Source of the DNA: an uncultured Gammaproteobacteria bacterium
GTDB taxonomy: Bacteria > Patescibacteriota > Microgenomatia > Levybacterales > UBA12049
Reading direction: 5' to 3'
Assembly (NCBI GenBank): GCA_964520695.1
Contig: CAZFNO010000001.1
Coordinates: 8,211 to 72,210 of the forward strand
Length of the DNA stretch: 64,000 nt
Shown: positions 8,933 to 64,000 of the stretch, in pieces
How positions within the stretch are numbered: the stretch's first letter is position 1
Layout of the letters: each line of letters starts with the position of its first letter
The notes under the pieces: model-generated
Told to the model about the DNA's origin: nothing
Databases searched by the model: none
Seen by the model: the letters and a program-made list of their open reading frames with translations, nothing else
Program-made: the position numbers and the translations under genes

Positions 8933-10163
8933 AAACATACTCCCAAAGGAGACCTCAGTACTGTTTGTAAGTTTTTCAAAATGGAGCAATGGGAGAAGAC
9001 TGCCGACCAATGGAAGTATTGAACCTCTGAGAGATTTTTTGGTACCTAAGATAAAAAAATTAGTAATTATTGATCAGCTCCATCCAGGAAGTGAAGGTGT
9101 AATGCCAAAAATAGAAGAATACAAAAACCACAGCAAAAAGTTTAAGTCGTATAGATCTTCATGGTATTTACATTTTTTAAAACCCCTTCTTAACTTTTTT
9201 AATCAAAGCAAAACTCAACCAATTTTCAAAGTAAGAGATTTTTTATCGGTTATCGACTGGTCTTTAAGAGATAAAACAAAATTTGACTACTGTATCTGCC
9301 TTGAAAGTATAAATACAATTGCCGCAATAATTCTTAGAAAAATGGGCCGTGTTAAAAAAGTAGTATATTACGTTTCTGATTATTCACCAAATAGGTATAA
9401 AAGCAATTTGTTTAATAAAATCTACCTTTGGCTTGACAGATTTAGCGCAACAAATGCGGATTTTATTTGGGATGTTTCCCCTGCAATGCAAAAGGCAAGA
9501 ATTAGCGCAGGACTGGATTCTAAAAAGTCAGCCCCTGTAATTCATGTTCCTAATGGTTTATACCCCGATCAGATAAAAGCAAATCCTGCGGATAAAATTG
9601 AGCCTTATTCCCTTGTTTACATGGGAACTTTAACGGTAGACAACGGGCCGGATATTGCTATAAAAGCACTGGGAATAGTTCTTAGGAAATTTAAGGATGC
9701 AAAATTGCATATAATAGGAGGTACAAAGAAGGATATTATTTGGCTTGACAAAATTGCTAAAAAAATGAAGATTTCCAATTCAGTCATTTTTTACGGCTTT
9801 ATAGAAGATGGTGTAAAAATGTCAGAGATTCTAAGGAAATGTTCAGTCGGACTGGCGCCATATAGAGATATACCGGGATCGATAAGGCATTACGCCGATG
9901 CAGGCAAAATACGGGCTTACTGTGCTTCTGGACTTGCTGTTGTCAGTTCTTCGGTCCCACCTTTAGGCTTGGAAGTTGAAAAAAAAGGAGGAGCTGTAAT
10001 AACAGGTGACAACTCAAGGAGTTTTGCTAAGGCAATTGATAAAATATTCTCAGACCCAAAACTTTTTTCTTCACTTCGCAAAAATGCAGCAAATTATGCA
10101 AAAGACAGTACCTGGGAAAACACATTCATAAAAGCATTTAGTAAGATGAAAGAAGTTGAATGA
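8925..10163 (+). CDS. GT-B type glycosyltransferase (GT4-like)
   Basis: Two-Rossmann-domain layout, 'LVYMGTL..GPD' start of the C-terminal domain, 'HIIGG'; ATG at 8925 overlaps the upstream stop (ATGACTAA). Confidence 0.5.
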   Translation: MTKNILPKETSVLFVSFSKWSNGRRLPTNGSIEPLRDFLVPKIKKLVIIDQLHPGSEGVMPKIEEYKNHSKKFKSYRSSWYLHFLKPLLNFFNQSKTQPIFKVRDFLSVIDWSLRDKTKFDYCICLESINTIAAIILRKMGRVKKVVYYVSDYSPNRYKSNLFNKIYLWLDRFSATNADFIWDVSPAMQKARISAGLDSKKSAPVIHVPNGLYPDQIKANPADKIEPYSLVYMGTLTVDNGPDIAIKALGIVLRKFKDAKLHIIGGTKKDIIWLDKIAKKMKISNSVIFYGFIEDGVKMSEILRKCSVGLAPYRDIPGSIRHYADAGKIRAYCASGLAVVSSSVPPLGLEVEKKGGAVITGDNSRSFAKAIDKIFSDPKLFSSLRKNAANYAKDSTWENTFIKAFSKMKEVE

Positions 10164-59043: not shown

Positions 59044-59105
59044 TTTTAGTAACTAGTAATTAGAAAATAGTTTTTAGTTTAAAATGTTATCGAAATGATC
59101 GGGGC

Positions 59106-59134
59106 TTGCAAAAACGTTTTTCATTTGCTACGAT
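59106..59134 (+). promoter_or_regulatory. Candidate ftsZ promoter (TTGCAA-17-TACGAT)
   Basis: -10 ends 9 nt before the ATG at 59144, implying a very short or no leader. Confidence 0.4.
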
Positions 59135-59143
59135 TTGTCAACT

Positions 59144-60286
59144 ATGCTCATAAAACCTCAGACGACTAATTTTGCAAAAATAAGAGTAATGGGTATAGGG
59201 GGCGGAGGAACAAATGCCCTAAACTCTATGATTGCGCAGTCATCCATTCAGGGCGTGGATTTCATAGCAGTTAATACAGATGCACAATCTCTTCTTCTTA
59301 ATCAGGCGGCAACAAAAGTTCAGATTGGAGAAGAACTGACAAAAGGACTGGGCTCTGGCGGAAATCCGGAAATTGGAGTACAAGCTGCTGAAGAGTCATA
59401 TGAAAAATTAAAAGATATTTTAGGAGGTACAGACATGGTTTTTCTGGCAGCCGGAATGGGAGGAGGGACAGGATCGGGTTCAACCCCTGTTATAGCAAGG
59501 GCAGCAAAAGAAGTTGGAGCATTAACAGTTGCTGTTGCAACAAAACCATTTACATTTGAGGGAACAAGAAGAATGGTAGTTGCCGAGGAAGCAATTGAAA
59601 ATTTAAAAGACAAAGTAGATACGCTGATTGTAATTCCAAATCAGAGAATTTTAGATGTAGTTGATAAAAAACTTTCACTTCTTGAAGCATTTAAAGTTGC
59701 GGATTCGGTGCTCACCCAGGGAGTTCAGGGAATCTCCGATCTTATAACAATGCCCGGACTTATCAATGTAGACTTTGCGGATGTCAGAACAATTATGCAA
59801 AACGCAGGCACCTCTCTTATGGGAATTGGAACAGGAGTGGGTGAGAATAGAGCCCAAGCAGCAGCGCGGGCTGCAATTGCCTCTCCTCTTCTTGAAATTA
59901 CAATAGAAGGGGCAAGGGGAGTTCTATTTAATGTAATAGGAGGACCGGATCTTACAATGAGCGAGGTGGATGATGCGGCAAAAATTATTGCACAAGCCGC
60001 AGACTCTGATGCAAATATAATTTTTGGTGCAACGATTGATGAGAGTATGAAAGATCAAATGAAAATAACGGTTATTGCAACAGGATTTGACAGCACCCGC
60101 CAGACATTACGCGAGTTTGTTGCTCCTCAGAGGTTTGATTCATCGCAGGCTTTTGGTGCTCAGCAGGAACAAAATACGGATTCACAGCAGGGTCAGGAAG
60201 AACCTCCTCCGCCCTCATCTCCACCTAGTGCTGAAGATGAGGAAGACGTCTGGGACATCCCCGCATTCCTAAGACAGAAGAATTAA
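59144..60286 (+). CDS. ftsZ: Cell division GTPase FtsZ
   Basis: 'GIGGGGTNA', 'GGTGSG' tubulin signature, conserved C-terminal peptide 'DIPAFLRQKN'; ATG at 59144. Confidence 0.95.
   Translation: MLIKPQTTNFAKIRVMGIGGGGTNALNSMIAQSSIQGVDFIAVNTDAQSLLLNQAATKVQIGEELTKGLGSGGNPEIGVQAAEESYEKLKDILGGTDMVFLAAGMGGGTGSGSTPVIARAAKEVGALTVAVATKPFTFEGTRRMVVAEEAIENLKDKVDTLIVIPNQRILDVVDKKLSLLEAFKVADSVLTQGVQGISDLITMPGLINVDFADVRTIMQNAGTSLMGIGTGVGENRAQAAARAAIASPLLEITIEGARGVLFNVIGGPDLTMSEVDDAAKIIAQAADSDANIIFGATIDESMKDQMKITVIATGFDSTRQTLREFVAPQRFDSSQAFGAQQEQNTDSQQGQEEPPPPSSPPSAEDEEDVWDIPAFLRQKN
60259..60286 (+). repeat. Copy A of ftsZ 3'-end repeat (native gene end, PAFLRQKN + TAA)
   Basis: CCCCGCATTCCTAAGACAGAAGAATTAA. 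Confidence 0.7.
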
Positions 60287-60293
60287 CCCCAGG

Positions 60294-60321
60294 TTGACAA
60301 TTCAGGACAAAGTGATATTAT
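60294..60321 (+). promoter_or_regulatory. Sigma70-like promoter TTGACA-16-TATTAT
   Basis: -10 ends 7 nt before the ATG at 60329, so a leaderless transcript is predicted. Confidence 0.55.
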
Positions 60322-60328
60322 TTGAGAT

Positions 60329-60886
60329 ATGGCAATAAGAGTTGAGAACATTGTCGCAAGACCTCCGTATCCAGAAAAACATCCACTTGCCCCAGTTGAA
60401 ATCAGCCCAGAATCAGCAAAGTTAGTTATGAGAGAAAGGGTTAAGAGGTATGCAGAGGGAATTCCTCAAGGATTTGTATCCAGAGCAAGAGGTCCAAGGA
60501 GATCATTGACCCTGATTAGTATAGATAGGGAGGGAGGATGGATGAATTCTACTGAAGCGGGTCATCCTGGATATGTTTTAGACGGAGTCCAGCTTCAAGA
60601 TTTGACAATTGAAGCCATGCAAGAGTTCGGATTAAACACAAATATTACTTATGAATCAGAACACAGTCTCAATCCGCATCCCAACGGAACAATAAGGGAG
60701 CGTACGGTATATCCAAGTCAGACAGTAAAAGGACTATCTTTTGAAAGATGGTTTGATTCTGTAGAGGCTACCGGAGAACCAGTATCCGTGGACTGGAGAT
60801 TGTTAGACACTCATGTAAATCCTGGTGAAGTGCTTATAGGAATGACACCTCCTAAGGAGGTTGTCGCAGTTCAACCTTCTAACTAA
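60329..60886 (+). CDS. Hypothetical protein (185 aa, no TM, unrecognised)
   Basis: Clean ORF with dedicated promoter; no known motif. Confidence 0.5.
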   Translation: MAIRVENIVARPPYPEKHPLAPVEISPESAKLVMRERVKRYAEGIPQGFVSRARGPRRSLTLISIDREGGWMNSTEAGHPGYVLDGVQLQDLTIEAMQEFGLNTNITYESEHSLNPHPNGTIRERTVYPSQTVKGLSFERWFDSVEATGEPVSVDWRLLDTHVNPGEVLIGMTPPKEVVAVQPSN

Positions 60887-60942
60887 AATAATTCCCTCTT
60901 GATATCAATTCTCAAAAAGTTTATATTTTGCCTAGGTGTTTT

Positions 60943-60992
60943 TAGTCCTTCGGCCTTACTCCCTCCAGAGGCGGGCAAGCAGGATAAAACAG
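60943..60992 (+). repeat. GC-rich conserved element, copy 1 (TAGTCCTTCGGCCTTACTCCCTCCAGAGGCGGGCAAGCAGGATAAAACAGG)
   Basis: Shares ~40 nt with 63276..63320, differing mainly by small indels. Confidence 0.6.
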
Positions 60993-60993
60993 G

Positions 60994-61019
60994 CCGCATT
61001 TCTCAGGCAGAAGAATTAG
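60994..61019 (+). repeat. Copy B of ftsZ 3'-end repeat (AAFLRQKN + TAG)
   Basis: CCGCATTTCTCAGGCAGAAGAATTAG; keeps reading frame and stop. Confidence 0.65.
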
Positions 61020-61020
61020 A

Positions 61021-61048
61021 TTGACAATTCAGGAACTACTTGTATAAT
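61021..61048 (+). promoter_or_regulatory. Sigma70-like promoter TTGACA-16-TATAAT
   Basis: TTGACAATTCAGGA is identical over 14 nt to the promoter at 60294; -10 ends 7 nt before the ATG at 61056. Confidence 0.55.
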
Positions 61049-61055
61049 TCTTACC

Positions 61056-61727
61056 ATGACTTTGGAACATGAACTAAGAACTGATTTTGGTGATCCACTC
61101 TCGGAACAACTAAGTCCTTTAGCCGCAGCAGAAGAATTTACGAGAATTTGTGAGATGCTTGATGAAAGACATATCTCATCGTTTCAGGCAGAGGAGGATT
61201 ATTGGGAATCCGGTAAAAGAATATTTGCAGGAGATCCTACAAAAAGACTTGGTGAATTATTATCTCAGTATTATGCCGGTACTCCAACCGCAAGAAAACG
61301 TTTATTGACGGAAGGATTCATAAAACACGGATATAATATGGGGGACGTGGTAAGTGATATTCCCTTTGGAAATTGGCCCGGAGACCTTGGAATGGATATT
61401 GAAAACGGAAGTGCGGGAGTATTTGAGAGGGAGGGAGCGCGGAAAATAGAAAGAACAGAGCTTCTGTTCTGGCTTCCTATTGAGATTGATTTTGATCTAG
61501 CAGGTATGATGGGAAGTTTGTCCGGTGATCCCAAAAAATCAATAGAGGCGTTTTTACAACAAATAGAAGAGTATGAAAAGGTATTCGGAGAGCCTTATGA
61601 CAGCCCCAGAGAAGAAGATACCGAGCATGAAAGGGTAGAAGCTGAGAAAGCAAAAGCAACAATACAGAGGCTTAAAAAAATTTTAGAAAGATTGGGACCT
61701 TCGAGTAATACAAGACTTGATAATTAA
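61056..61727 (+). CDS. Hypothetical acidic protein (223 aa)
   Basis: Clean ORF, own promoter, no recognisable domain. Confidence 0.5.
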   Translation: MTLEHELRTDFGDPLSEQLSPLAAAEEFTRICEMLDERHISSFQAEEDYWESGKRIFAGDPTKRLGELLSQYYAGTPTARKRLLTEGFIKHGYNMGDVVSDIPFGNWPGDLGMDIENGSAGVFEREGARKIERTELLFWLPIEIDFDLAGMMGSLSGDPKKSIEAFLQQIEEYEKVFGEPYDSPREEDTEHERVEAEKAKATIQRLKKILERLGPSSNTRLDN

Positions 61728-61760
61728 TTCCCCTGGCTCTATTCAAAGAGTGATCAATAG

Positions 61761-61787
61761 CCCGCATTCCTAAGGCAGAAGAATTAA
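61761..61787 (+). repeat. Copy C of ftsZ 3'-end repeat (stop-PAFLRQKN-TAA)
   Basis: CCCGCATTCCTAAGGCAGAAGAATTAA, 26/27 identical to copy A; its TTAA also provides the stop of the antisense gene 61784..62014. Confidence 0.65.
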
Positions 61788-62014
61788 ATTGTACTATAAC
61801 CCCTAACGTGGAGAATGTCGTTCTTGCTGACCCTGCGGACATCAGAAAATTTAAGAGTTATTAATGCAACAGTTTTACCTGTTGCTGTAACAAATTCTAC
61901 CTCAATTGTCTTACCATCTTCATATGCATTTACAACTGCTCCCATATCTCCAGCTCTGAGGCCGTGTTCAGGAATGTCGCGCTTAAGTATGACTGTTTCT
62001 AATTCTTCAAACAT
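61784..62014 (-). CDS. DUF4926-like small protein (antitoxin-like partner)
   Basis: 'VILKRDIPEHGLRAGDMGAVVNAYEDGKTIEVEF' resembles the DUF4926 core; start taken at the internal ATG (62014). Confidence 0.45.
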   Translation of the reverse strand: MFEELETVILKRDIPEHGLRAGDMGAVVNAYEDGKTIEVEFVTATGKTVALITLKFSDVRRVSKNDILHVRGYSTI

Positions 62015-62021
62015 ACGCTTA

Positions 62022-62297
62022 TTATAGAGGATAAGCCGTGATAAATCTAGGGCTACCCTCATCTTTCTTTACAAACCAAACAGTGTTTATTTTAACTTTC
62101 TTACCGCTTGGTGATTTTATTATTCCGTCTAACACGTAATTTGTACCATAAGGCAATTTTCTAGATTCTTTTATTTCATTTGATTGGGCGATTGTTATGA
62201 ATGATTTAATCAAAATATCTATGTTGTTATTATTAAAACCAAGTTTTCGAAAAAACTTCGCTTTAGATCTACCGACTATGTGTGTTTCTGAAAGCAA
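62022..62297 (-). CDS. DUF6883-like small protein (toxin-like partner)
   Basis: 'GRSKAKFFRKLGF' and C-terminal 'VWFVKKDEGSPRFITAYPL' resemble the DUF6883 family; TTG start, possibly N-terminally truncated. Confidence 0.45.
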   Translation of the reverse strand: MLSETHIVGRSKAKFFRKLGFNNNNIDILIKSFITIAQSNEIKESRKLPYGTNYVLDGIIKSPSGKKVKINTVWFVKKDEGSPRFITAYPL

Positions 62298-62356
62298 ATA
62301 ATTAGTTTAGCCCGCCAAATCAATCTAAATTATCCTTTTATTTTAATCCTTTAAGG

Positions 62357-62384
62357 TTGACAATATTTAATCCTGTAGTATAAT
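62357..62384 (+). promoter_or_regulatory. Sigma70-like promoter TTGACA-16-TATAAT
   Basis: -10 ends 6 nt before the ATG at 62391 (leaderless). Confidence 0.55.
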
Positions 62385-62390
62385 TCGTGC

Positions 62391-63194
62391 ATGGCTGGCT
62401 GGCTTGAAAGAAATATTAATAGAATAAAAGATCGAGAGAGGGAACTCGAAGAAGAAAGAATCAGAAAACAAAAAGAAGAATTAAGACTACATCAGGAGCA
62501 AGAACAAATTAGGATCGATGAAACATCGAAGGGAAATAGAAGACTTTTAGAGACGTTAGAGAGACTAAATGCAAGGGGATGTTTGGAAGATATAAATACT
62601 TTAACATGGGATGGTGTTGGTACTATTACCATCGATGATCTATTGGCGAATAGAGGGCGAATGGGCATTGAACTTTCTTTTGAATATCCGAGGTATTCTA
62701 CTTATTATTCTCCTGCCTCTGGAATCTTTGATAGCTATAGATCAGCGTCAACTTCTCATTCCGTTAAGTGGGTTTCAACCATGATTAGAGTAGGCCTTGT
62801 TTTAACATTATTAGAAGTACCAGCATTAGAATTGGAAGCCACTTACGGATTTGATACCGACTCTTATGGACAAGCAAAACCGCAATTTAGAGAGCATGTA
62901 TCTGATGTTTTAGTTGATTCGCCAGAATCAGCAAAAGTTGTTATAGAAGATTTCTTAGGAAAAGATATATTAAGACGACAAAGATCCGAATCGTTTCCAC
63001 TTCAACTTGCCAAAAAGGGTTTTGTAGGAATTAATAAAGGTTTACTAACTGGTAGTCCTGGGTGGGAGGAGCGCGTACAACGCGTACAAAGCTTTATAGA
63101 TTCTTCCCCAATTGGGACTTACACTGCGCCTGAGCCAGAATGGATGAGAACACACACTGCAGCACCATATCGTGAGTCTCCTGACAATTGGTAA
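62391..63194 (+). CDS. Hypothetical protein with N-terminal coiled coil (267 aa)
   Basis: 'RIKDRERELEEERIRKQKEELRLHQEQEQIR' heptad-like charged segment, then a globular domain; unrecognised. Confidence 0.5.
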   Translation: MAGWLERNINRIKDRERELEEERIRKQKEELRLHQEQEQIRIDETSKGNRRLLETLERLNARGCLEDINTLTWDGVGTITIDDLLANRGRMGIELSFEYPRYSTYYSPASGIFDSYRSASTSHSVKWVSTMIRVGLVLTLLEVPALELEATYGFDTDSYGQAKPQFREHVSDVLVDSPESAKVVIEDFLGKDILRRQRSESFPLQLAKKGFVGINKGLLTGSPGWEERVQRVQSFIDSSPIGTYTAPEPEWMRTHTAAPYRESPDNW

Positions 63195-63275
63195 TCCAGT
63201 ATTTCTAGTCATAAATATGATATATTCTAATCAGATGTTTTTAGTATGAATTGAAGCTAGAAATAATCTCTGACT

Positions 63276-63320
63276 TAGTCCGTTCGGCAAGCTCTCTCCA
63301 GAGGCGGGCAGGATAAAACA
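63276..63320 (+). repeat. GC-rich conserved element, copy 2 (TAGTCCGTTCGGCAAGCTCTCTCCAGAGGCGGGCAGGATAAAACA)
   Basis: Matches 60943..60992; here fused directly to a promoter with no ftsZ-tail copy. Confidence 0.6.
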
Positions 63321-63329
63321 TTCCCCATA

Positions 63330-63357
63330 TTGACAAATTGATATAGTTTGATATAAT
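63330..63357 (+). promoter_or_regulatory. Sigma70-like promoter TTGACA-16-TATAAT
   Basis: 20-nt leader containing AGGAA before the ATG at 63378. Confidence 0.5.
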
Positions 63358-63377
63358 CCACGCTTAGGAATAAACAT

Positions 63378-64000
63378 ATGAATGAAATACCAGGTCAGCC
63401 ACCAAAAGACGAACCAAAGGCAGTTCAAATGCCTACTGGAGACGAAATGCTACGAAGGCTTCAAGCTACTGGTCTTTATGGATTAACTCCACAGACAGAT
63501 GCTTTTTATGATCAGTTTATGAAATATTCTGCAGGCCATCAACTTAATGGAATGGGTCTCACTAATACTTGGGAACTTGCAAGTTATGATACTTTAAGAC
63601 AGTATCCCCCAGCTCTGAGAGCAGTAATCGGTGCTGGATTTGACAGAGTAATTGATGCAATAACTCCTGATGAAAAGGTGGCAGATGATGCAAAACAATT
63701 TAGAAAAAAAGTACTTGAGGAATTAGCAAGAAAAGCTAAAGAAAGTGAACCCACACCAGAGGAGCTTGGTCCAGCAGATTCGCTAACTGATTTAGCAAGA
63801 TATTCACAAGCCCGTAGAATAGCAGATATCGTGTTTGAGTATGCCAGTGGCGACGTTGGTGTTTCATTTGATTATATATGGATGCAGGATAGAAGAGGAG
63901 AAAGTCCAAATCCATACTACAAACAAACCCATAGAGGTTTTTTCTTAGAAGGATATTATGGACAAATAAGTACACTATGGACTCCATGGGGAGAATATGG
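63378..64000 (+). CDS. Hypothetical protein, 5' part only (runs off the window; not in the ORF track)
   Basis: Manual translation from the ATG at 63378 ('MNEIPGQPPKDEPKAVQMPTGDEML...') gives 207 sense codons with no stop to position 64000. Confidence 0.45.
   Translation, partial: MNEIPGQPPKDEPKAVQMPTGDEMLRRLQATGLYGLTPQTDAFYDQFMKYSAGHQLNGMGLTNTWELASYDTLRQYPPALRAVIGAGFDRVIDAITPDEKVADDAKQFRKKVLEELARKAKESEPTPEELGPADSLTDLARYSQARRIADIVFEYASGDVGVSFDYIWMQDRRGESPNPYYKQTHRGFFLEGYYGQISTLWTPWGEY

Follow-up and report, generated by a model that had tools for sequence, protein, structure and literature searches.

We studied a 64-kb stretch of DNA (contig CAZFNO010000001.1; the whole stretch is hereafter called the window), in which the gene ftsZ is followed by a series of small genes. 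In our reading, to which we give a probability of roughly 0.7, these genes form five or more small mobile cassettes in tandem (g1, g2, the pair DUF4926-DUF6883, g3, and the pair g4-g5), which were added at the ftsZ 3' end by site-specific recombination. The FtsZ protein of the window has its best matches, at 85–91% identity, in Candidatus Levyibacteriota (Microgenomates, Patescibacteria/candidate phyla radiation, CPR). Logan contigs prolong the sequence by about 1 kb, to position 65,001, and the island spans positions 60287 to at least 65000, with its far end lying past the sequence at hand. An earlier note on the window had described an individually expressed accessory island with four unrecognisable plus-strand genes, interspersed repeats, and an antisense toxin-antitoxin (TA)-like cassette. 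The four open reading frames (ORFs) on the plus strand 3' of ftsZ, g1 to g4, and the minus-strand pair DUF6883/DUF4926 agree with that description, and the genes are indeed not conserved past ftsZ in 80 related loci. The repeats are also real, and they turned out to be copies of the 3' end of ftsZ acting as att-like boundaries, thereby explaining the whole structure of the array. In the literature that we searched, neither an integration target in ftsZ nor such an array is described.

Copies of the ftsZ end downstream of ftsZ

The gene ftsZ (59135..60286, plus strand) was identified by Pfam (Tubulin, 1e-46; FtsZ_C, 1e-34). It is intact in the window, and its product ends in WDIPAFLRQKN, the FtsA-binding peptide, directly followed by the stop codon. 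The tail is conserved in 75 relatives, and the canonical end of the window gene is shared with 65 relatives. The same gene order was found in short-read contigs of four independent SRA runs, and the array is therefore not an assembly artefact. The sequence of g3 is identical in the four runs. For the comparison, we used 80 ftsZ loci of species-representative genomes with 10 kb on each side, or 81 loci including the window, and an nhmmer profile of 48 nt made from 65 ftsZ tails encoding the WDIPAFLRQKN end with its stop codon. Individual loci and contigs are given below by our own labels (L001 and so on).

The repeat family of the window (D1) consists of direct copies of the last ~27 nt of ftsZ (CCCGCATT...TAA), which we call the core. 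Core copy 1 (60260..60286, plus strand, CCCGCATTCCTAAGACAGAAGAATTAA) comprises the last eight codons of ftsZ and the stop codon, with an E-value of 2.9e-16 for the 48-nt match at 60239-60286. It is a putative attachment site of the attL type, and the extra tail copies in relatives begin at its start position. Core copy 2 (60994..61019, plus strand, CCGCATTTCTCAGGCAGAAGAATTAG; E 6.7e-6 with the tail profile) is out of frame with any ftsZ-like reading. Core copy 3 (61761..61787, plus strand, CCCGCATTCCTAAGGCAGAAGAATTAA; E 9.6e-7) is a right half only and has no arm, the second repeat described below, ahead of it. We regard copy 3 as a displaced ftsZ end because the frame stop-PAFLRQKN-stop is retained. 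Beyond these three copies, the tail profile found nothing with E below 0.8 in the 65 kb.

Position and orientation of the copies are strict. Across the 81 loci, 73 extra tail matches lay downstream of ftsZ (601 kb) versus 6 upstream (669 kb), and all six upstream matches had E above 1. The strong matches (E below 1e-3) were located downstream and on the ftsZ strand in 40 out of 40 cases. Of the 80 relatives, 23 had at least one strong extra tail copy, which in every case lay downstream as a direct repeat. The distances between copies form three classes. Copies 46–60 nt apart are empty duplicates with a GC hairpin spacer; those 0.4–4 kb apart enclose one to a few genes, for example, NYN, AbrB/Doc, and unknowns; and the class of 5.96–7.55 kb comprises six cases, each integrase-bearing. 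In the empty duplicates (L023, L030, L031, L032, L035, L090 at 9662-9721, and L105 at 792-839), the ftsZ stop codon is followed by a GC-rich hairpin spacer of 20–35 nt (...GGCGAGGCTCGCC...) and a second 27-nt core. Such a duplicate could be an excision footprint or a minimal cassette.

The arm repeat and the junctions

Many tail copies are preceded by a conserved unit of ~80 nt, the arm, with the consensus TTGAC-17-TATATT-N6-TAGGTGTTTTTAGTAAGAATTGAAGCTAGAAACAA running into GTCTGGGACATCCCCGCATT. In the window, arm copy 1 is represented by its 5' two-thirds (60899..60946, plus strand; E 4e-5 with a hidden Markov model (HMM) of the arm). It holds a promoter-like TTGATA-17-TATATT and is followed by a 47-nt insertion (60947-60993) bearing a TCCTTCG...CAGGA sub-repeat. 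Arm copy 2 occupies 63207..63275 (plus strand; E 2.9e-12), and the start of arm copy 3 (plus strand) appears at ~64976 in the extension, after g5. All 23 matches of the arm HMM lie downstream of ftsZ and on the plus strand. An exact-pattern scan of JGI/ENA metagenomes returned 12 contigs with the arm, most of which, including every one of at least 4.7 kb, also carry ftsZ or copies of the ftsZ tail.

RNAalifold found no consensus structure in 13 arm-plus-tail units, one strand being folded with RNA energy parameters, and Rfam gave nothing at the gathering threshold or with E up to 1. For these reasons, we consider that the arm acts at the level of DNA, presumably as the element-side arm of the recombination site, to which the recombinase would bind, and that it also bears an outward promoter-like motif. 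The idea of a guide RNA or bridge-like RNA as the principal explanation was dropped after RNAalifold predicted no structure for the arm. In some units, arm and core are separated by one or two inserted copies of the sub-repeat TCCTTCG-N6-7-CTCAGGA(C/T) (window 60944-60993 and 63279-63320; L105 1606-1665 and 4473-4525; L089 10640-10700), and the copies in the window are further interrupted by CCTCCAGAGGCGGGCA.

Three types of junction could be distinguished. The first is the arm followed by the full tail through the stop codon. The second comprises right-half-only copies starting at CCCGCATT, with at least 20 cases, including copies 2 and 3 of the window. In the third type, the arm is followed by a left half ending in CCCC, CCCCG, CCGC, or CGCAT and fused to a promoter, as exemplified by L104, where GGGACATCCCCG is joined to ACCTATAGTTTGACA. 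A truncated left half of the tail in the window (AACATTCCCC, 63317..63326, plus strand) is fused directly to the promoter of g4, and this junction of ACATTCCCC with ATATTGACAA is identical in the window and in L104, where it stands ahead of a g4 homologue. What the left and right halves have in common is about CCCGCAT, a length that fits the overlap region of a tyrosine recombinase. Judging from the two kinds of half-copy, the crossover would lie within this stretch of ~7 bp.

A variable hotspot with integrase elements in relatives

A conserved block of ileS, a rodA/ftsW-type gene, rplU, rpmA, parB, and lepB, all assigned by Pfam, was found past ftsZ in 29 loci. The gap between ftsZ and ileS in these loci measures between 53 and 6265 nt; of the 98 ORFs in it, 58 are singletons. 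Moreover, five contigs terminate exactly where ftsZ ends, and one scaffold is interrupted by an N-gap at the same place. Because both the size and the content of the gap vary, and because assemblies break at this point, we consider the 3' flank of ftsZ to be a variable hotspot throughout the lineage; the comparison of this flank among relatives, proposed in the earlier note, thus revealed the variable content that an accessory island should have. In the gap-free version of the closest relative (L105), nine further core copies follow ftsZ over 7.8 kb at spacings of 0.4–3 kb, and ileS starts ~12.5 kb past the ftsZ stop codon.

Six genomes (L005, L015, L029, L038, L051, and L069) encode a tyrosine recombinase (PF00589, 2.8e-38) directly past ftsZ and have a second tail copy 5.96–7.55 kb further on. 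A metagenome contig (L107) carries a 4.5-kb integrase element with the same boundaries. The accession of L005 is JACPLG010000016, and that of L107 is Ga0209542_10058694. The integrase of the relatives is Xer-like, scoring 146 bits with XerA, 134 bits with XerD, and 90 bits with the integron integrase, all of which are below the cut-offs, and it is adjoined by a helix-turn-helix gene of the phage-repressor type. No virion or conjugation genes were found in the integrase-bearing elements of the relatives, and their integrase has no close relative in IMG/VR. By analogy with known islands, these elements bear the classical signature of integration at a gene 3' end with regeneration of the target (PMC4383910). 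The integrase elements, that of L107 included, have a terminator hairpin, AGCACC-N4-6-GGTGCTTTTTT, 20–30 nt past the ftsZ stop codon, whereas cassette 1 of the window instead opens with a promoter 8 nt past this stop codon.

Cassettes shared between genomes

Among the 80 related ftsZ loci, g1, g2, g3, and g5 have no homologue and g4 has one partial match; from the cargo of the window, only the DUF4926/DUF6883 pair recurs in these loci, namely in the closest relative. When 5.8 billion protein clusters were searched with k-mer seeds, the g1 family gave 6 clusters and the g2 family 3, and g3 matched only itself. The g4 family has ~200 cluster representatives. The homologues of g1 keep the same promoter (TTGACAATTC.GG...TATTAT) and the same arm right past the stop codon, and the promoter sequence of g1 also precedes its homologues in L089 and L094. 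These homologues sit in different surroundings: behind a glycosyltransferase cluster and beside the same core-plus-TA unit in L089, behind an M23 peptidase gene in L094/L095, and beside a tRNA and lepB in L092. The core-plus-TA junction of core copy 3 recurs in L006/L105 and in L089. One g2 homologue (L090) lies between two core copies directly past ftsZ, and another (L091) is preceded by a core copy and located ~6.5 kb upstream of ileS. The ftsZ island of L104 contains a homologue of g4 with 72.5% identity, flanked by an arm on either side. When ORF families were mapped over eleven islands, the same modules appeared in different orders.

Some of these homologues have further neighbours. In L090 (9802-10693), the g2 homologue overlaps a preceding gene for a 72-aa DUF433 protein, an antitoxin-like family, by 20 nt, and g2, solitary in the window, might accordingly represent one half of a two-gene module. 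IS200-type Y1 transposase genes occur near the ftsZ/ileS variable regions of L090 (2056-2730) and L091 (6673-7350), both of which carry g2 homologues. The contig that carries a more distant homologue of g4 (54% identical; L096 4430-4870) has neither arm nor ftsZ tail and contains some eight direct repeats of iteron-like character (GATTTTCCG/ACATTTTCCG), which suggests that members of the g4 family are also carried by a replicon of plasmid or phage type.

Proposed mechanism

We envisage the following mechanism for the assembly of the array. The target would be the sequence encoding the conserved C-terminal peptide of FtsZ together with its stop codon. An Xer-like tyrosine recombinase would join this ftsZ site to the site of a cassette, consisting of the ~80-nt arm, the ftsZ-like core, and the outward promoter. 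The recombinase is encoded at the same position in related genomes and would act in trans on the array of the window. The incoming DNA would bring a replacement for the ftsZ end, leaving FtsZ intact, and the older end would be moved downstream as a scar. Repeated rounds, together with recombination between cassette sites, would then build and shuffle the array. Each cassette carries its own consensus sigma-70 promoter, presumably because cassettes land behind a stop codon.

A broader claim would be that Levybacteria carry an active integron-like capture system that is independent of integrons, in which an Xer-like recombinase, self-expressing and mostly leaderless single-gene cassettes, a 7-bp overlap site of ~CCCGCAT in the last codons of ftsZ, and an arm with an ftsZ-mimicking core as the cassette site maintain a phylum-wide reservoir of ORFan and TA genes tied to the cell-division gene. 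We advance this claim only tentatively and would not bet on it at even odds.

Several observations weigh against the proposed mechanism. Neither a circular intermediate nor an empty site from the same population has been observed. No tyrosine recombinase was detected by tblastn in the window and its 1-kb extension. Since there is no integrase in the 65 kb, present mobility at this locus needs a trans-acting enzyme or is extinct. The extension of the contig, which the earlier note had recommended in search of an integrase or further array members, brought the further member g5 and the third arm start, but no integrase. The att copies differ from the resident ftsZ tail at 2–6 positions, which means that the insertions are old or that the sites tolerate variation. 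The arm has no conserved fold, and its binding by the recombinase is presumed. Finally, ftsZ is not the sole location of such cassettes, because the g1 homologues in L094 and L092 have the arm and no ftsZ tail upstream.

Alternative explanations

The strongest competitor, which we nevertheless consider unlikely, is that one or two larger integrated elements, for instance a prophage or an island deprived of its integrase, have decayed to leave the present array. In that case, the units would never have been singly mobile, and the tail copies would stem from old tandem integrations and deletions, as in cis-mobilizable elements (CIMEs). Integrase elements of 4.5–7.5 kb do occupy the same site in relatives, the tail copies and the ftsZ copy have drifted apart in sequence, the array of the window has no integrase, and a route of decay followed by accretion has been documented for other elements (PMC5704250). 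However, decay of a large element does not account well for single-gene units that recur with the same boundaries in other orders and neighbourhoods across genomes, or for up to nine core copies 0.4–3 kb apart in one genome (L105), and g1 to g5 were not found inside the integrase-bearing elements.

A flexible island could also be kept by homologous recombination only, with ftsZ and ileS as anchors and the tail copies as by-products of imprecise recombination or duplication. We regard this as improbable, even though the flanks are conserved around a variable content and the GC content at third codon positions (GC3) of the cargo equals that of host genes. The boundaries of the copies at CCCGCAT are sharp and recurrent, half-site junctions exist, the orientation is strictly direct, and seven or more genomes have a tyrosine integrase positioned precisely between two copies.

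Very improbable, in our view, is that the arm plus tail functions at the RNA level, as a small RNA transcribed from the TTGAC-17-TATATT promoter of the arm or as a shared signal in the 3' untranslated region, rather than as a recombination site. The promoter-like motif in the arm is conserved in position, and visual inspection suggests an AU-rich hairpin of 9 bp (GUUUUUAGU/GCUAGAAAC), but RNAalifold gave no consensus structure for the 13 units and Rfam returned nothing. The unit also keeps the orientation of ftsZ even beside a cassette gene encoded on the opposite strand (copy 3 of the window; L014). An RNA element would leave the integrase-bounded elements unexplained, and an outward promoter and a recombination arm can coexist.

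It is hardly credible that g1 to g4 are lineage-specific division accessory genes of the division and cell-wall (dcw) cluster, like SepF, YlmG, or DivIVA past ftsZ in other phyla, for although they are placed directly past ftsZ and the N-terminus of g3 is coiled-coil-like, they have no Pfam match to SepF/YlmG/DivIVA-type families, are absent from the 80 related ftsZ loci, and have homologues at unrelated places.

Relation to known systems

Elements that integrate at the 3' end of a gene include e14 in icd as well as ICESt1 and ICESt3 in fda. Target-regenerating islands at gene 3' ends have been described in tDNA (Islander, PMC4383910) and for dusA-specific integrases (PMC4482086). As in these islands, the integrase is located beside the target (in the relatives), the target is restored by DNA of the element, a displaced fragment remains at the far end, and the site is a hotspot. 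The elements at ftsZ differ in their target, the stop-proximal 27 nt encoding the FtsA-binding peptide, in their CPR host, and in their very small size of 4.5–7.5 kb with no recognisable transfer or virion genes.

Tandem accretion involving CIMEs is also known (PMC5704250, citing Pavlovic 2004 and Bellanger 2011). The likeness lies in integrase-less, att-flanked units beside or replacing an integrase element at the end of a housekeeping gene. As no integrase adjoins the att site in the window, the array there qualifies only as integrase-less (CIME-like) units. Whereas CIMEs are few and large decay products, the units at ftsZ are mostly single genes with their own promoter, with up to nine att copies per genome, and they are reshuffled between genomes.

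The resemblance to integrons includes ordered and mostly single-gene cassettes with a conserved recombination element between them, reshuffling among genomes, an Xer/IntI-like recombinase, TA modules, and largely ORFan cargo; the newest cassette would adjoin the fixed primary site. By definition, the array is not an integron, because it has no IntI, no hairpin-forming attC, and no shared promoter (Pc). No IntI is encoded in the window, and the integrase of the relatives reaches 90.6 bits versus a cut-off of 265 (TIGR02249). The recombinase, where present, is encoded within the array rather than upstream of attI. According to RNAalifold (13 units, one strand, RNA energies), the boundary element is no hairpin-forming attC. 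Each unit has its own consensus promoter instead of a common Pc, and the primary site is inside a coding gene. In concept, the array is best read as combining, by analogy, a 3'-end integrative island, CIME accretion, and an integron-like cassette organisation.

Genomes of CPR/Patescibacteria are tiny, and to our knowledge very little is known about gene acquisition and exchange in these bacteria. The locus described here points to a predictable, defined place, the end of ftsZ at its stop codon, in which many Levybacteria store variable genes, and it provides a simple rule for locating pools of accessory and ORFan genes in CPR metagenomes. The mechanism is directly testable because recognisable boundary sequences and a candidate recombinase are at hand. 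The system could also provide a tool for site-specific integration in organisms that are now without genetics.

Promoters and leaderless spacing

The earlier note had assigned to each of the four genes a near-perfect promoter of its own, at leaderless spacing in three of them. We found the same: three promoters match the consensus at 12 of 12 positions and one at 11 of 12. The promoter of g1 (60294..60321, plus strand, TTGACA-16-TATTAT, 11/12) ends 7 nt before the ATG. That of g2 (61021..61048, plus strand, TTGACA-16-TATAAT, 12/12) starts 1 nt past core copy 2 and also leaves 7 nt between the -10 element and the ATG, and that of g3 (62357..62384, plus strand, TTGACA-16-TATAAT, 12/12) leaves 6 nt. 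The promoter of g4 (63330..63357, plus strand, TTGACA-16-TATAAT, 12/12) has a TG extension; with 20 nt between its -10 element and the ATG, and AGGA within this leader, g4 is not leaderless. The idea of one gene per strong promoter holds for g1 to g3 and fails for g4, which shares its promoter with g5. Eight promoter sites with at most one mismatch are present in the 64-kb window, compared with 1.03 ± 1.04 expected (none of 100 shuffles reached eight), and the three perfect sites are all within the region past ftsZ.

We surveyed the spacing in the 80 relatives using promoter-like sites with at least 10 of 12 matches and the distance from each to the ATG of the next ORF of at least 60 aa. The distance between the -10 element and the ATG peaks sharply at 6–8 nt (110 of 304 sites), over a background of ~3 per position. 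Leaderless mRNAs are therefore a well-supported prediction for g1 to g3. Since the peak was found across the 80 relatives, the leaderless geometry is general in this lineage rather than peculiar to the island, and it constitutes comparative evidence that leaderless expression is normal for strong promoters in the Levybacteria lineage. Leaderless mRNAs of Actinobacteria such as M. tuberculosis (PMC3898074) show the same geometry, in which the -10 element ends 6–8 nt before the ATG and transcription would start at the start codon. The case here differs in concerning a CPR lineage, in being deduced from sequence alone, and in being a genome-wide habit.

Several other intergenic starts in the window, among them that of ftsZ, share the leaderless geometry. 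The true start of ftsZ is probably the ATG at 59144, the listed TTG at 59135 being less likely. Within 59100-59146, a promoter-like TTGCAA-17-TACGAT ends 9 nt ahead of this ATG, and ftsZ may thus be nearly leaderless too and transcribed apart from ftsA.

Cargo genes and surrounding features

Nearly all genes of the window are on the plus strand in tightly packed operons, with a GC content of 0.27–0.43. No tRNA gene was found in the 64-kb window, and no Rfam family was found in it at the gathering threshold. The cargo genes have the same GC3 as the dcw genes, and therefore there is no compositional sign of a recent foreign origin. The values of dN/dS are 0.09–0.19 for g1, 0.16 for g2, and 0.32 for g4; the range of 0.09–0.32 indicates that the cargo genes are real and under purifying selection.

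The gene g1 (60329..60886, plus strand) encodes 185 aa and is under purifying selection; g2 (61056..61727, plus strand) encodes 223 aa; and g3 (62391..63194, plus strand) encodes 267 aa with a coiled-coil-like stretch at the N-terminus. The gene g4 (63378..64000, continuing to 64250 in the extension, plus strand) encodes a protein of two domains and 290 aa in full, as seen in Logan contig L001. The gene g5 (64267-64962 in the extension, plus strand, 231 aa) has no promoter of its own and starts 16 nt past g4; this spacing predicts that g4 and g5 are a co-transcribed two-gene unit. Homology to housekeeping families, which would have spoken against an accessory island, was not found: g1 to g5 have no significant match in Pfam, PHROGs, NCBIfam, or PADLOC, which also agrees with the description of the four genes as unrecognisable in the earlier note. 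AlphaFold models of the cargo gave no significant fold match, and a Pfam search of ten long members of the g4 family matched only one unrelated GNAT fusion. The possibility that g1 to g4 are paralogues of each other was rejected, as an all-versus-all BLASTP showed no relatedness.

The TA-like pair lies between g2 and g3 on the minus strand. The upstream member is the DUF6883 gene (62022..62297; Pfam 5.7e-23), and the downstream member is the DUF4926 gene (61784..62062; Pfam 5.1e-19), the latter with 91% amino-acid identity in L006/L105. These are small, co-oriented, and co-occurring families with a 41-nt overlap, and the pair is kept in L105 and L089. Its gene arrangement resembles that of a type II toxin-antitoxin pair, although neither PADLOC nor NCBIfam has a name for it. 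By analogy, the association with TA modules suggests conflict- or addiction-type cargo. The otherwise unrelated genes g1 (60407-60429) and g3 (62922-62944) have a 23-nt stretch in common that is 87% identical (CCAGAATCAGCAAA.GTT.GTTAT) and encodes PESAKLVM in g1 and PESAKVVI in g3.

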